A stretch of DNA of 64,000 bases from a virus (IMGVR_UViG_3300016657_000126:24885-88884), one strand, 5' to 3'; shown: positions 49,817 through 64,000, counted from the stretch's first letter. A program made the numbers and translations. The notes: generated from the letters alone by a model not told the origin.

Positions 49817-51217
49817 TTATGAATCCTGCACCATGCGCATGCGGCCCGGGTGACGAATCTTCTTCAACGCTTTCGCTTCGATTTGGCGGATGCGCTCGCG
49901 TGTCACGTTGTAGCGCTGCCCGATCTCTTCTAACGTAAGTTCCTCTTGTTCAGGACCAAGACCGTATCTGAGAATGAGCACGCGGCGCTCGCGCTCGGAA
50001 AGGGTGTTGAGCATCCCCATGATACGGTCGCGCGTGATCGACGCGCCGGCCACGAGCATGGGGTCTGACGCCGTTTCGTCGGCAATGAACTGCCCTACTG
50101 TCGCGCCATCCATCTCGTCCGACGCCGGCGCGTCGAGCGACACCGTGGTCTGCGCCAGCTGCTGCACGCGCGCGACGCGATCCTCGTCCCAACCAAGTTG
50201 CTCGGCTATCTCCGCCGTTGTCGGCTCGCGCCCCAACTCCTGCGCCAGCTCGCGACTGGTGTGGGAAATACGGGCGATGACTTCGGTCATGTGCACCGGC
50301 ACGCGAATCGTGCGACTCTGGTCACAGAGCGCCCTGGATATCGACTGCCGGATCCACCAGGTGGCGTAGGTCGAGAACTTGAAGCCGAGGCGGTAGTCGA
50401 ACTTGTCGACCGCGCGGAGGAGTCCCAGGTTACCTTCCTGGATCACGTCCAAGAATTGAAGCCCGCGATTCACGAACTTCTTCGCCATGCTGACCACAAG
50501 ACGAAGATTTGCGCGGACCATGTGATCGCGCGCTTTGATGATGGCGCGATAGTGCCCGTCGGCGCGCGCCAGCACCGCCTGAAGCTCGGAGGCTGGTAAC
50601 CCGTAGGCGGAGACAACCCGCGAGTCCCGGGTATCGAGCTTTGTGATGGTCGCGCGATGAGCGGCCATCCAGTCGGCGTAGGTGCTGTAGCTGAGGCGGC
50701 AGTTGATCGCTAGGCGGCGCGCTTCGGCGAAGTAAGAGCTCGGCTGTCGACGCGACCCGAACAGAGCGTTGGCCTTGCTCGTGGCGTCCTTCAGCGCGCG
50801 GAGTTGCTCGCCCTTCTTGACCGCCCGGCGCTCGGATAGCATGCGCAGCGTGCGCCCGTCGCCGGTGAGGGCCTTGTCCGCGATTACGATGGCCAGCCGG
50901 ACAACGAGCGGGATGTTGCAGAGCTCCTCGGAAAGCGCGTCTTCGCCCGCGATCATCGCCTTCGCCAACTCCTGCTCCTGCTCTCGATCCAGAAGCGGGA
51001 CTTCCCCCAGCTTGGAAAGGTAGCAGCGAAGCGAGTCATGTGTGTCGACTTCCACCTCCTCGTCCACCACGCCGCCGAGTTCGTTCACCACCCAGTCAAC
51101 TTCCGCCATTGAGGCGTGCTCGGGGAGCGCAGCGACTACGTCCGATTCCGATACCTTGCGGCCGGCGGCAATCTGGCCCCGCAAGGTTTCAAGCGCAAAG
51201 CTGGCGGCGGCGTTCAC
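49817..51217 (-). CDS. rpoD: RpoD-type (group 1-like) sigma70 factor
   Basis: DSLRCYL (1.2), [46 protein letters not shown]...[20 protein letters not shown]. Confidence 0.95.
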
Positions 51218-60129: not shown

Positions 60130-61047
60130 TTGGCGGGTCACCCGCCGATTGACACAGAGTTTTTGACCACCGAGTATTGTTTCGTGTTTAACGAACTCAT
60201 AGCCATCAGTGCGCTACGCTTTGCTTTCGCCGCGAAGCTGCCGGAGGGGCTCACAAGGCCCGGGATCTATGCGATCAGGCACATACCCAGCGGCCGGATT
60301 TACATCGGGTCTGGGTGCGGCGTGAACGGGATCCGTGCGCGCTTCTACAGTCACCGCAAGACGCTGGAAGCTGGAAGGCACAAAAATAAAATCCTTCAGA
60401 ACTTCTACGACAAATACGGCGCCGCTACGTTCGAGTTTGTTGTAGTCGGTTTATGCGAGCGCGCCAAAGCACGCGCACTGGAGACTGAGGCGATTCGCGG
60501 GGTTGGTTCAATCCATCCGAGAGGATTCAACATAAATCCGGAGGGCATCGAAAAGTGGGGACAGCGACTTTCTGATAGCACCAAGAAACACCTAGCGCGA
60601 ATTAACCAAAAACCGTTCCGCCTACAGTTCGGTGAAAAAGTGTTCGAAGGCGAAAACCTCACCCAATTCTGCCGCGAGCGCGGTTTGCATCAGGGGGCGA
60701 TGACCCAAGTTAATCTGGGGAAGAAGCATCAATTCAAGGGGTGGACGCGCGCGGGGGAACGCGTGCGCCACAGCCTAGTGATAGGCCCGGACAATATGCT
60801 CCACGAGATCCCGCACCATCGCATGGCGGAGTTCGCGAGAAAGCACGGCATCCGACCTGGAAGTTTCACTCAGTTGTGTGGTGGACGTCTACGTTACCTC
60901 AAGGGGTGGCGCAGCGCATTGCGTGAGACGACACACGCGGAGGCGCTGGAATACGTCGGGCTGAATAAGGCAGACGTAGCTCGAAAAAACGGAGTCAGGA
61001 GCCGAATTCGATTTCGTCGTCCGGATCAATCTTTCCCTGCTCAATAG
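60130..61047 (+). CDS. GIY-YIG homing endonuclease with two C-terminal KGW-type DNA-binding repeats (true start probably near 60184 or later)
   Basis: PGIYAIRH...RIYIGS...ARFYSH...L..G.H.N..LQ..Y; repeats ending QFKGW and YLKGW; opposite strand to neighbours. Confidence 0.92.
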   Translation: MAGHPPIDTEFLTTEYCFVFNELIAISALRFAFAAKLPEGLTRPGIYAIRHIPSGRIYIGSGCGVNGIRARFYSHRKTLEAGRHKNKILQNFYDKYGAATFEFVVVGLCERAKARALETEAIRGVGSIHPRGFNINPEGIEKWGQRLSDSTKKHLARINQKPFRLQFGEKVFEGENLTQFCRERGLHQGAMTQVNLGKKHQFKGWTRAGERVRHSLVIGPDNMLHEIPHHRMAEFARKHGIRPGSFTQLCGGRLRYLKGWRSALRETTHAEALEYVGLNKADVARKNGVRSRIRFRRPDQSFPAQ

Positions 61048-63577
61048 CTTTCAGCGCCGTAGCTTCGTCTTTTACGCGCCACTTTTTTAACGCAGGTCGT
61101 TCTTTAGCAGCGAAAAGTCCCATTATAGCCTCATGTTTTGGCTGGGGCATCACCTTGTCCGGATCGCGAATGGTGAAGAGCATCTTGCTCGGCATGAGTT
61201 TCTCGTGCGCTTCCTCCACAGCATCGCTCGTGGCCGGAACGTGGAAGTTCATCGTGTCTCCGTCGTGGTCGGCGTTGAGACCGGTGCCGACGAAAGGGTT
61301 GATGGCGATGGCGTCGCCGTCGATGAGCTGAGGGCGCCCGGACAGGACCGAGAACTTGTGCCAGGCCGGCGCGCGCGAGTAGACCACGGGGCGCTCGGCG
61401 GCTTCCTGCAGGAGTGCGCGTGTGGCCAGATCAGAGCGCTGCTCGATGTGCTTGAGCGCGTCGCCGGGCGCCATGCCGTTGCGGACGAGCCGGCGCTGCA
61501 CGTGCGGCGCGTAGGCGACCCAAGCCTGGGATTTCGGGATGCCGACCTCATCCAGCCCCAGCGTGGGATCCACGACGATGACGGCGCGGCCGACGTTGTC
61601 CTGCGGCTTACCGATCAGCTTTCGAAGCGGGAAAGAGAACTTTGGGGAACCAGGACCCGTGATCTTCTTCAGGAACCCACTGACGCTGCGCGCGCGGAGC
61701 TTGTGGTTGGTCGGCTCTCCGTAGCCGTAGAGAGCGCGCTGCGCGTCGTAGAGCGCGAGGCGTGCGTCGCCCGCGGCTTGGTCTCCGAGCGCCTCGCGCG
61801 TCTCCTGGAGGATGCGCCGGTGCTCGAACAGGTCGCGGTAGAGCTCGTTAGCGTCACCCGGAATGAACGTGTCACCGGCGACAGAGAATGGACGAAAGGC
61901 CGGCGGAACGATGGGCACCGAGCGGACCATCAGGTCCTCGGGGCGCAGGTTGTTTCGGCGGAGTCCGTTGATCGCGGCCAGCCGCTTGATGGCAGGGCCT
62001 CGGCGCGTGGCTTTGCCTGACGCGAGGTCGGCACGGGCCTGCGCCTCGAGCGCGTCGAGGTCGATCGCAGCGAGCATGTCACGCAGTTTGCTGCTCGGCA
62101 TGGCGGCGGCCTGCTTCTCGCTCTCGGGCGCCTTGGGCCCCATCTGAAGCATCCACTCTGCTTGGATCTCGGCTGGTGTCTCGGGCTCGCGCAGGTCGCC
62201 GGGCTGAGGGCCGACGTAGAGCGGGTGATCGAGGTCGGACATCACCAGCGTCACCTTCTCGTCGGGATCGTTGGACGCCTGGAACTTGGCAGGGGAAAGC
62301 CCGTGATCGGTCATCTCGAACAGCGCACAGTCCTTGTATTCGCCGTCTTTGATAAAACCGAGCAGACGAAGACGTTCGTCGCAGAAGGCGGGCTCAAGCC
62401 CGAACTCCTCACCCAGCTCGCGGATGATGGTGTGGCGCAGAGTTTCGTCGCCGTCGTCCTTTCCGCCGCCGGCGGGACGCAGCTTACCTTTGGCGGGGCC
62501 GTCGGTGTTGAGCTGCAGTAGGACGGTGTCGTCTTCATTGCGGAAGAGGACGCCGGCGCCGAGACGCGACGAGCCCTGCTTCTGCATGACAGGCTCGATG
62601 AACGAGGACCACCAGGCGGCGTTGCGGCGGGTCAGTGGGATCTTTTCGCCGCCGGCACCGGTCGTGTAGCGAGTCGACTCACGCCGGATGCCTTCGGCGT
62701 CGTTCTTGACCATGGCGGCGGCCAGGCGCGGTGCCGGCACACCGTTGTAATAAAAGTCGGTCAGGCCCCAGCGGTAGCTCTCGGGCAGTTTGTCCCAAGC
62801 GCCGGCGCCGTGAGCAGCCTCGACGGCCGCGCGGGCCTTGGCGGCATGCGAGTCAATCTGCGCGCGCAGCATGCTCTGCACCTGGGCGTCGCTGTAGCTT
62901 CCGGCCCGGGGAACGCGAATGCCGGGTCCGACGGCGGGGTGACCGCGGTCGTCGTAAGTCTTCCAAGTCGAGGTAGCTTGGGAGAAGCCTTTGCGCGCGG
63001 CGTTCTCCTGCTGCCAGAGGAACTGAGCGTAGGCATCGGCGGTCGACTTGCGCGCGCCGGCCGCGGTAGCGACGGGCGGCGCGCCGCGGGGCGCTGCTAC
63101 ATGCGGGGGCGCGGGCGGGCGGAGAAGCGCGGGCTTCTTTGTCACCGGCGTAAACGTGACCGTCGCCTGCGGGGCCTCGAAATTCGCCGCCTTCTCCTGC
63201 GCGCGACGGGTCTCGAGGAAAGCGTCGAGGCGCTTCTTGAACTCGTCGCGCTTGGCCTCGGGCAACAGCTGCACCGGGTCGATGGCCCAGCTGCGAAGAG
63301 CCAGCCCGCGCCGCGGTGACGGATTCTTGGCGAACAGCGCGCCGTGCCGCTGACGGAACAGCCACCAACGACGCTTCTGCTTCTCATCATCTGCGCCGCG
63401 CCGCCCCGCGGAGTATTGCTGATACCACTGGAGGAATCCGAGCGGATCGTGCGGGCTGGTCCAGTCGTCCGGCCAGTAGTTGAGCGACTTCTTGTTGGAC
63501 GCGTGCAACCCCGCCAGCTCCTCGTGGAGCTCTTCGGGTTTAAGGTCTGGCGCGAACGGAACCTCGATGTGCGGCAT
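60995..63577 (-). CDS. polyprotein: unknown Trp-rich domain + GH24-like lysozyme + Nudix hydrolase + RNA polymerase beta' catalytic fragment
   Basis: beta': VPIVPPAFRP, LIGKPQDNVGRAVIV, RAPAWH, NADHDGD (61256-61276); Nudix box GKDDGDETLRHTIIRELGEEFGL; lysozyme E...TYDDRGHPAVGPG...LTDFYYNG...LTRR. Confidence 0.9.
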   Translation of the reverse strand: MPHIEVPFAPDLKPEELHEELAGLHASNKKSLNYWPDDWTSPHDPLGFLQWYQQYSAGRRGADDEKQKRRWWLFRQRHGALFAKNPSPRRGLALRSWAIDPVQLLPEAKRDEFKKRLDAFLETRRAQEKAANFEAPQATVTFTPVTKKPALLRPPAPPHVAAPRGAPPVATAAGARKSTADAYAQFLWQQENAARKGFSQATSTWKTYDDRGHPAVGPGIRVPRAGSYSDAQVQSMLRAQIDSHAAKARAAVEAAHGAGAWDKLPESYRWGLTDFYYNGVPAPRLAAAMVKNDAEGIRRESTRYTTGAGGEKIPLTRRNAAWWSSFIEPVMQKQGSSRLGAGVLFRNEDDTVLLQLNTDGPAKGKLRPAGGGKDDGDETLRHTIIRELGEEFGLEPAFCDERLRLLGFIKDGEYKDCALFEMTDHGLSPAKFQASNDPDEKVTLVMSDLDHPLYVGPQPGDLREPETPAEIQAEWMLQMGPKAPESEKQAAAMPSSKLRDMLAAIDLDALEAQARADLASGKATRRGPAIKRLAAINGLRRNNLRPEDLMVRSVPIVPPAFRPFSVAGDTFIPGDANELYRDLFEHRRILQETREALGDQAAGDARLALYDAQRALYGYGEPTNHKLRARSVSGFLKKITGPGSPKFSFPLRKLIGKPQDNVGRAVIVVDPTLGLDEVGIPKSQAWVAYAPHVQRRLVRNGMAPGDALKHIEQRSDLATRALLQEAAERPVVYSRAPAWHKFSVLSGRPQLIDGDAIAINPFVGTGLNADHDGDTMNFHVPATSDAVEEAHEKLMPSKMLFTIRDPDKVMPQPKHEAIMGLFAAKERPALKKWRVKDEATALKAIEQGKIDPDDEIEFGS

Positions 63578-63616: not shown

Positions 63617-64000
63617 TCAGCCGCGCTTGAGCGCCATGCGGATCAACGCAGACACCGACGCACCAGGCTCAGCCTTCATGGCGCGGAGCACGGCCGCGCG
63701 CGCTTCCGTGGCCTTCTCTCCGAGAGCCATCAGCGCAGCGACGGCGTCAGAGTTCGGGATGATCTCGGGCGCAGCGGGTGGCGCCTCGACCGCGCCTTTC
63801 GCCACCAGCTCCTGGCGTGCCTTTGGCGGGAGGCCCGGCAGCGCCAGCATATTGGATGGCGACGGGTCGAGGACGGCAACGCGAAGGACGGTCGGAGATG
63901 CGCGTTGCATGCACAGCACAGCTTTTCCTGGACCGACGCCAGTAAGCGTCAACAACTCCTCGAACAGCACCAGGGACTCGAGCGAAGAAAAGGCGTAGGT
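63617..64000 (-). CDS. ruvA: Holliday junction DNA-binding protein RuvA (5' end beyond window)
   Basis: TYAF...LFEELLTLTGVGPGKA (HhH) and DAVAALMALG...A...V...LIRMALK (domain III). Confidence 0.88.
   Translation of the reverse strand, partial: TYAFSSLESLVLFEELLTLTGVGPGKAVLCMQRASPTVLRVAVLDPSPSNMLALPGLPPKARQELVAKGAVEAPPAAPEIIPNSDAVAALMALGEKATEARAAVLRAMKAEPGASVSALIRMALKRG

Follow-up and report, generated by a model that had tools for sequence, protein, structure and literature searches.

Short cleavage motifs are known from phage T4, in which gp21 cuts after L/I-x-E, and from phiKZ, in which gp175 cuts after S/A/G-x-E. Among phages that encode a multisubunit RNA polymerase (RNAP), phiKZ and AR9 have split beta and beta' subunits and carry the enzyme in the particle for early transcription (PMC7598289; PMC7824862). 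In purified particles of Salmonella phage Arash, Gp206 gave the most spectra (3516), and Gp216, the sigma factor Gp10, a cell wall hydrolase, and several phosphohydrolases were also present (PMC10585845). For Nudix domains fused to head proteins, packaging and injection have been proposed (PMC9503650). Here, we describe an open reading frame (ORF) of 860 amino acids (aa), P0001, in the virus record IMGVR_UViG_3300016657_000126, a 196,897-bp genome from a freshwater metagenome that CheckV rates as complete. The window, that is, the whole 64-kb stretch that was analyzed, covers 24885-88884 of this record; positions labeled "genome" refer to the record and all others to the window. We propose, with a probability of roughly 0.55, that P0001 is a cargo polyprotein processed by a head protease. 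It would be a head-cargo precursor that ends in the catalytic beta' fragment of a bacterial-type multisubunit RNAP encoded by the phage itself; in front of this fragment lie a widespread N-terminal domain (N-domain), a diverged GH24-fold domain, and a MutT-like Nudix hydrolase. The features of P0001 and of its 3' end are as follows.

60995-63577, minus strand: 860-aa ORF P0001, comprising N-domain, linker, GH24-like domain, Nudix domain, and beta' catalytic fragment (translation, Pfam, PDB matches, model)
63173-63565, minus strand: Trp-rich helical N-domain, aa 5-135 (confident model, predicted local distance difference test (pLDDT) 84; no Pfam model matched)
63185-63193, minus strand: K129-A-A, junction motif 1, a putative processing site
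63053-63172, minus strand: disordered Pro/Ala linker, aa 136-175, with an extra K-x-A at K148 (pLDDT < 50)
62579-63052, minus strand: GH24 lysozyme-fold domain, aa 176-333 (VIA-align structure match only)
62573-62581, minus strand: K333-Q-G, junction motif 2; K-x-A/G occurs here in 6/6 proteins having this joint
62183-62572, minus strand: Nudix hydrolase domain, aa 336-465, with its box at 62396-62464 (Pfam PF00293, box regular expression, fold Z ~10)
62108-62116, minus strand: K488-Q-A, junction motif 3, exactly at the onset of beta' homology
60998-62107, minus strand: beta' fragment, aa 491-860, equivalent to E. coli beta' ~171/178-545, with the catalytic double-psi barrel and NADHDGD at 61256-61276 (Pfam, PDB matches)
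60998-61177, minus strand: last 60 codons of P0001, with a third-position GC content of ~0.5 vs 0.8-0.9 elsewhere (codon usage; still collinear with orthologues)
60130-61047, plus strand: antisense GIY-YIG homing endonuclease gene, overlapping the last 53 nucleotides of P0001 (annotation of window ORFs)

The original prediction, made from the sequence, had described one uninterrupted 860-aa ORF at this place; translation yields exactly this ATG-to-stop frame, with AAGG 9 nucleotides 5' of the ATG, and the predicted domain coordinates are right within a few codons. Such a frame in a metagenomic record, with shifted codon usage in its last 60 codons, could be an assembly chimera or a decaying pseudogene, which we regard as very improbable. 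The whole stretch, joints included, is covered with zero differences by a Logan contig that a second assembler produced independently, at depth 33, from the probable source run, and the lysozyme/Nudix joint is also crossed by short identical pieces from other metagenomes (wastewater runs). The fusion is shared by homologs: the orthologues P0002 (849 aa) and P0003 (851 aa), from other samples, keep the entire frame at 59-60% identity, with the same four modules and the same C-terminal residue. The codon shift is accounted for by the neighboring homing endonuclease cassette, which apparently brought its own recoded copy of the P0001 3' end. From the assembly match and the conserved orthologues, it follows that the frame is real, not an assembly artefact, and under selection. 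Truncation of beta' by the homing endonuclease was considered and rejected, since orthologues without the GIY-YIG gene stop at the same residue.

The C-terminal module is related to bacterial RNAP. Residues 488-825 align to E. coli beta' 178-512 with E ~1e-32 to 1e-39 (best 2.6e-39) and to cyanobacterial gamma 175-550, while Pfam Rpb1_2 (PF00623) matches aa 656-792 at 2e-19 (70.8 bits vs a cut-off of 25.3), together with a weak piece of Rpb1 domain 1. As had been predicted, only the middle of beta' is present, ending shortly past the catalytic loop: P0001 holds the equivalent of E. coli ~171-545, and the N-terminal clamp with its zinc finger, the bridge helix, and the trigger loop lie outside the fragment. 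The loop, NADHDGD at aa 768-774, keeps all three Mg-binding Asp residues and has His in place of Phe; the orthologues read ADFDGD, His recurs in the relative P0061, and Tyr is found in two others. Both this Asp triad and the Nudix box are intact. The beta' part maps from residue 449 of the Thermus subunit but from residue 178 of E. coli beta'. Thermus beta' carries a large lineage-specific N-terminal segment at this place, and the split therefore coincides with the site of that segment.

Ahead of beta', the Nudix hydrolase with an intact box was likewise found as predicted. PF00293 scores 30.5-34.2 bits vs a cut-off of 21.1 over aa 338-409, and the box at aa 372-394 is complete and canonical (G372-x5-E-x7-REUxEExGU). 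In the structural comparison, aa 336-462 match Nudix enzymes at Z ~10, with fold matches spread over MutT, ADPRase, Dcp2, and RppH; the nearest NCBIfam families are MutT/NudI, far below their cut-offs.

The evidence for processing comes from the joints between these modules. Only five K-x-[AG] occur in the 860 residues of P0001 (K129, K148, K333, K410, and K488), with zero in the 370-aa beta' part. Across 16 related proteins, K-x-[AG] is present at 22/22 inter-domain joints, at a density of 0.044 per residue vs 0.006 within domains (sevenfold), and K-x-A-[AS] was observed 20 times at joints where composition-preserving shuffles gave 2.0 expected (maximum 8 in 2000). The same motif marks head proteins. 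The capsid protein N-terminus contains K35-E-A-S in this phage and K27-E-A-G at the homologous place in Arash, and the small Arash structural proteins gp220 and gp223 contain the motif 6-7 times each. Genome-wide, the motif concentrates in head-module ORFs at 185-193 kb adjoining the capsid gene. The ORFs richest in the motif, and a further motif-bearing protein, are given below.

genome 185066-186520, 188187-189674, 190760-193156, and 147626-148678, minus strand: the four ORFs with top K-x-A-[AS] counts (5-9 each)
L005:4104-6635, minus strand: 843-aa GNAT protein adjoining the beta-C gene, syntenic in the relative L011

Two of the four ORFs are homologues of the Arash structural proteins gp222 and gp218, and any of the four might encode a scaffold, an internal head protein, or the protease. 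In the 843-aa protein, the GNAT domain lies between K-Q-A-S at aa 18 and K-S-A-S at aa 150, and two further sites follow; phmmer finds no beta homology in it, and it is probably another cargo polyprotein. Such a distribution is what would be expected of a head-maturation protease site. Because K-x-A/G stands at every joint of P0001 and is shared with head proteins, the chain is probably cut, loaded in the capsid, and delivered.

Packaging is also made plausible by Arash, a true, distant relative whose capsid, portal, gp222, Gp206, and Gp216 all match this genome by tblastn. The earlier idea of a virion-packaged polyprotein gains real, though indirect, backing from the Arash particle proteome and from the motif shared with capsid and other head ORFs. 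The idea that the domains are coupled in one enzyme fared differently, as the joints look like cut sites and the domains are probably released separately. We envisage that the P0001 chain would first be incorporated into the prohead, where the head maturation protease would cut it at K-x-A/G at aa 129, 333, and 488, giving four products, namely the N-domain, the lysozyme-like domain, the Nudix enzyme, and the catalytic part of beta'. The beta' piece would then assemble with sigma and the remaining RNAP fragments, and this RNAP set would be ejected with the DNA, whereupon early transcription would begin. The lysozyme-like piece may aid wall crossing, and the Nudix enzyme may remove nucleotide or RNA 5'-end species that hinder infection. 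From the observed domains, their conservation, the junction motif with its link to head proteins, and the kinship to a phage with RNAP in its particles, we infer the cleavage, packaging, and ejection of P0001 as well as all enzyme activities and substrates named here.

Several points weigh against this proposal. The P0001 gene is found outside the head module, ~22 kb away from the portal, in a region devoted to replication and nucleotide metabolism. For Arash, the authors themselves warn that enzymes abundant in the particles may be carry-over (PMC10585845). No prohead protease was matched by the Pfam S77 and S78 models, of which the S77 control was silent too. The junction motif is short and the counted proteins are related, so the statistics overstate independence, and some K-x-A matches (F-L-x-K-A-A-R-Y) belong to the first strand of the Nudix domain itself. 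In addition, the lysozyme-like domain has no sequence match in Pfam (E up to 10), NCBIfam, or the PDB, where a profile of eight homologues gave no GH24 chain, and the equivalent of T4 lysozyme Thr26 appears to be Ala215, as read from the alignment and the secondary structure of the model, not from superposition. Elsewhere in the searches, the HK97-type and Gp23-type capsid Pfam models gave no match in the genome, with the Gp23-type (PF07068) control silent too, and Pfam revealed no peptidase domain in P0001.

P0001 aa 1-480 were modeled by AlphaFold on an 82-row alignment (mean pLDDT 86, disordered at 136-173), and the model was compared with 48,161 PDB representatives by VIA-align. Residues 176-333 match the phage FAHEc1 endolysin (7m5i) at Z 12.4, with a root-mean-square deviation of 2.7 over 135 residues, the SpmX muramidase domain (6h9d) at Z 12.1, the DLP12 endolysin at 11.7, and P22 lysozyme (2anv) at 11.6, along with many T4 lysozyme chains at Z 9-10. 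With E11, D20, and T26 of T4 lysozyme as the catalytic reference residues, Glu191, located where helix 1 ends, is shared by 7/8 homologues of the alignment, most of which also have an Asp after the first strand. The predicted GH24-like muramidase is therefore upheld as a fold, whereas its muramidase activity is uncertain, because the domain is recognizable by fold alone and the Thr26 equivalent is apparently Ala.

The main rival explanation is that the chain stays intact as a decorated RNAP subunit, packaged or not, in which the Nudix domain (elsewhere a 2H or PNKP-type phosphatase domain) is tethered in cis at the clamp side of beta'. There, it could act on nascent RNA 5' ends or incoming nucleoside triphosphates (NTPs), removing pyrophosphate or nicotinamide adenine dinucleotide caps, or damaged and chain-terminating NTPs. 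This explanation, which we consider doubtful, draws on the recurrence of the fusion. A full HMMER scan with aa 1-480 as query over 1.84 billion representatives gave 345 proteins, which were mapped with the four modules. At least 14 representatives from uncultured phages have the Nudix subfamily of P0001, at 45-55% identity, fused to beta' fragments, and some of them also carry a 2H or PNKP-type phosphatase domain. The order of modules varies: in P0053, the Nudix domain lies C-terminal to beta', and in P0004, P0005, and P0015, the lysozyme-like and Nudix pair stands behind a beta N-terminal fragment instead. The link between Nudix and RNAP is thus old and recurrent, the lysozyme-like module being a narrower addition. 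The beta N-terminal ORF of the present phage bears a 2H/ThpR domain, and the beta' part begins where Thermus beta' has its extra segment, both of which would suit a decorated subunit. Nevertheless, mere co-packaging of the modules with RNAP would make recurrent fusion just as likely, it is not obvious what a lysozyme fold would do on an enzyme engaged in transcription, and a K-x-A/G at each joint, common to the capsid and scaffold-like proteins, favors cutting. As side observations from the same scan, P0028 is a standalone Nudix protein on a short contig, and the contig of P0005 stops just past the gene.

A further possibility, less probable still, is that P0001 encodes an ordinary non-virion subunit of a middle or late RNAP, its N-terminal modules being accreted passengers, some of them inactive, and the motif a habit of linker composition. 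The setting of the gene would fit, since replication and nucleotide-metabolism functions surround it together with a DNA methylase, HNH and GIY-YIG endonucleases, and a sigma factor; likewise, one RNAP set was found, and hence no virion/non-virion pair as in phiKZ, and the linkers are rich in Ala, Lys, and Glu. Against this, the motif is tenfold above composition-matched shuffles and stands at the capsid protein N-terminus of both this phage and Arash. RNAP and sigma are in the Arash particles, and conservation extends to the lysozyme Glu, the Asp triad of the catalytic loop, and the Nudix box. Processing of P0001 as head cargo is thus the reading that we prefer.

The N-domain, which had been described as a Trp-rich domain followed by a Pro/Ala linker, corresponds to a confident helical model at aa 5-135 and a disordered linker. 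More than 100 homologous copies of the domain, which matches no Pfam model, were collected, and it occurs in at least 118/161 of the representative proteins gathered. Apart from the other P0001 modules, it is found anywhere in the chain in over 100 proteins, whose lengths range from 113 to 2184 aa, and its partners there include SNF2 helicases, InPase, LigD 3'-phosphoesterase (LigD_N), 2H/Acb1, Nudix, GNAT, and peptidases. The module partners found elsewhere (InPase, 2H, lysozyme, SNF2, and Nudix) are typical of phage polyvalent or head-packaged proteins (PMC5512222; PMC9503650). The N-domain sequence has no match in Pfam at E up to 10 or in NCBIfam. Structurally, a wide PDB search gave at best Z 5.6 (mimivirus R596 C-terminal domain), the AlphaFold clusters gave unnamed proteins at E 0.007 or weaker, and BFVD gave none below E 0.02; the modeled domain is therefore without a convincing structural match, and a new fold is not claimed. 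Assignments to DUF6321, DUF3140, or DUF5824 (Atlas leads) were rejected, as all scored < 0.9, and so was PF19846, which has no match in this genome. The N-domain is a very common, unexplored phage module.

The original prediction had suggested looking for other beta and beta' fragments in the genome, and these were found. A single RNAP set is broken over at least five ORFs, P0001 among them, and is accompanied by a sigma factor.

genome 114972-116585 (L026), minus strand: beta-N fragment carrying a fused 2H/ThpR/Acb1-like phosphoesterase at aa 380-499; the portal gene is two genes away
genome ~114.4 kb: beta-mid, the fork-domain piece (Rpb2_3)
genome 89087-92104 (L005:1087-4104), minus strand: beta-C half, 1005 aa, with a weak LAGLIDADG signal at aa 689-749 (Rpb2_6, 3.5e-50)
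genome 1316-4762 (L006), minus strand: beta'-C half, 1148 aa, with two Hint modules and a LAGLIDADG domain
49817-51217, minus strand: full-length sigma-70-type factor, 466 aa, with regions 1.2, 2, 3, and 4, syntenic in L011

The sigma-70-type factor is likely the specificity subunit of the phage RNAP. In L011, the synteny of the GNAT protein, beta-C, small ORFs, the P0001 gene, the methylase, and sigma is kept. In the relative L009, a single 2062-aa chain runs from beta directly into beta', and the last ~60 residues of the beta-C ORF match the L009 segment immediately before the equivalent of beta' 171. Hence, the ancestral beta-beta' chain was split there, with the accessory modules now at the new N-terminus, and the tail of the beta-C ORF appears to hold a reduced beta' N-terminus. 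This tail was not recognized as beta' by phmmer against the PDB, and neither the beta' N-terminus (Rpb1_1 positions 1-160) nor Rpb1_3 was found by Pfam or tblastn.

Two of the RNAP genes seem to have been invaded. The beta-C ORF of 1005 aa probably carries an intein, given that its L011 orthologue is just 637 aa. Arash Gp216 aligns to the beta'-C ORF in three blocks, with gaps at the Hint and LAGLIDADG places; two inteins are probable in this ORF, of which one would include a homing endonuclease. In P0026 and P0082, relatives with the Nudix-beta' arrangement, the beta' match is interrupted by several hundred residues directly after DFDGD, with Cys or Ser next, which suggests that an intein has entered the catalytic loop. 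The neighborhood of the beta-N gene near the portal is the same as the RNAP location in Arash. The remaining genes around P0001 are as follows, of which the two on its 3' side are ordinary for such phages.

63617-64000, continuing to genome 89097, minus strand: 198-aa ORF with a RuvA C-terminal-type three-helix domain, between beta-C and P0001
54244-55029, minus strand: HNH endonuclease gene, 3' of P0001
56389-58209, minus strand: 606-aa C5 cytosine DNA methylase, 3' of P0001

More tentatively, the capsid may hold an "infection starter kit" that comprises a sigma-dependent bacterial-type RNAP, built from pieces set free by proteolysis, as well as Nudix, 2H, GNAT, and lysozyme-like enzymes. A hitherto undescribed head protease specific for K-x-A/G would release all of these from polyproteins, and they would leave the capsid along with the DNA; in this scheme, it is through RNAP fragments as carriers that variable counter-defence or RNA-end-processing enzymes would be loaded into the head. 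If the head-cargo reading holds, a bacterial-type RNAP nearer to the cellular enzymes than the phiKZ type would work in at least five pieces, some of them released by proteolysis. A simple K-x-A/G cleavage code would apply to many uncultured and cultured (Arash-like) phages, making head cargo predictable from sequence, and a Nudix subfamily travelling with phage RNAP in many arrangements would point to a nucleotide or RNA-end substrate that is important at the onset of infection.

The literature searches found no description of a multisubunit RNAP fragment fused to a Nudix, lysozyme-fold, or N-domain module, in line with the earlier impression that the fusion had not been described, nor of a K-x-A/G junction code. 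Moraphages (PMC12619734) were dropped from the comparison, since those phages are without RNAP. The mReC phages are uncultured tailed phages whose beta and beta' are recognized by cellular COG models and are sister to bacterial RNAP (Weinheimer and Aylward 2020; PMC7481178), and in this respect they resemble the present phage. A Gp23-type capsid (PF07068) is reported for them, whereas here this model has no match (control silent) and the capsid is a homologue of Arash gp226; their description makes no mention of Nudix, sigma, inteins, or splits.

The phiKZ/AR9 group shares the split of beta and beta', and its Bacillus phages have a phosphohydrolase (HD) fused to a beta fragment (PMC7824862). 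Unlike the enzyme described here, which matches bacterial beta' at E 1e-39 and occurs as one set with a sigma-70-type factor nearby, the RNAPs of that group are far more diverged from bacterial RNAP, form two paralogous sets, and are without sigma. The parallel drawn earlier with the split RNAPs of jumbo phages therefore holds for the splitting and not for kinship with the phiKZ type, the closest enzyme being the bacterial-type, sigma-accompanied RNAP of Arash-like and mReC-like phages.

Phage polyvalent proteins (Iyer, Burroughs, Anand, de Souza, Aravind 2017; PMC5512222) also combine several unrelated effector domains per chain, with lysozyme, 2H, InPase, SNF2, and virion polymerase in one domain network. 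The polymerase reported there is the single-subunit N4-like virion RNAP, in contrast to the multisubunit bacterial-type fragment of P0001, and a zincin peptidase within the chain is named as the processing enzyme, whereas P0001 has K-x-A/G joints and no peptidase domain was found. The relevant passages of PMC5512222 and PMC9503650 do not mention a fusion of Nudix or lysozyme to beta'. The head cargo of T4 and phiKZ offers a parallel for the joints, in that one short motif recurs in the capsid propeptide, in internal cargo, and in scaffold-like proteins; for P0001, this motif would be K-x-A/G, and its cleavage is predicted.

Arash is the closest of these systems. Its RNAP (28-32% identity), capsid, portal, and other head proteins are homologous to those of the present phage, a sigma factor is found in both, and K-x-A occurs at the capsid N-terminus and in head proteins of both. 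Arash RNAP was detected in particles (PMC10585845). In Arash, beta and the N-terminal half of beta' form one 1525-aa chain, Gp206, without Nudix, lysozyme, or N-domain, and Gp216 is the C-terminal half of beta'; the tblastn match of P0001 in Arash covers query aa 485-859 only. In the present phage, the same enzyme is spread over at least four further ORFs, two of them with accessory enzymes, and has been invaded by probable inteins and homing endonucleases.

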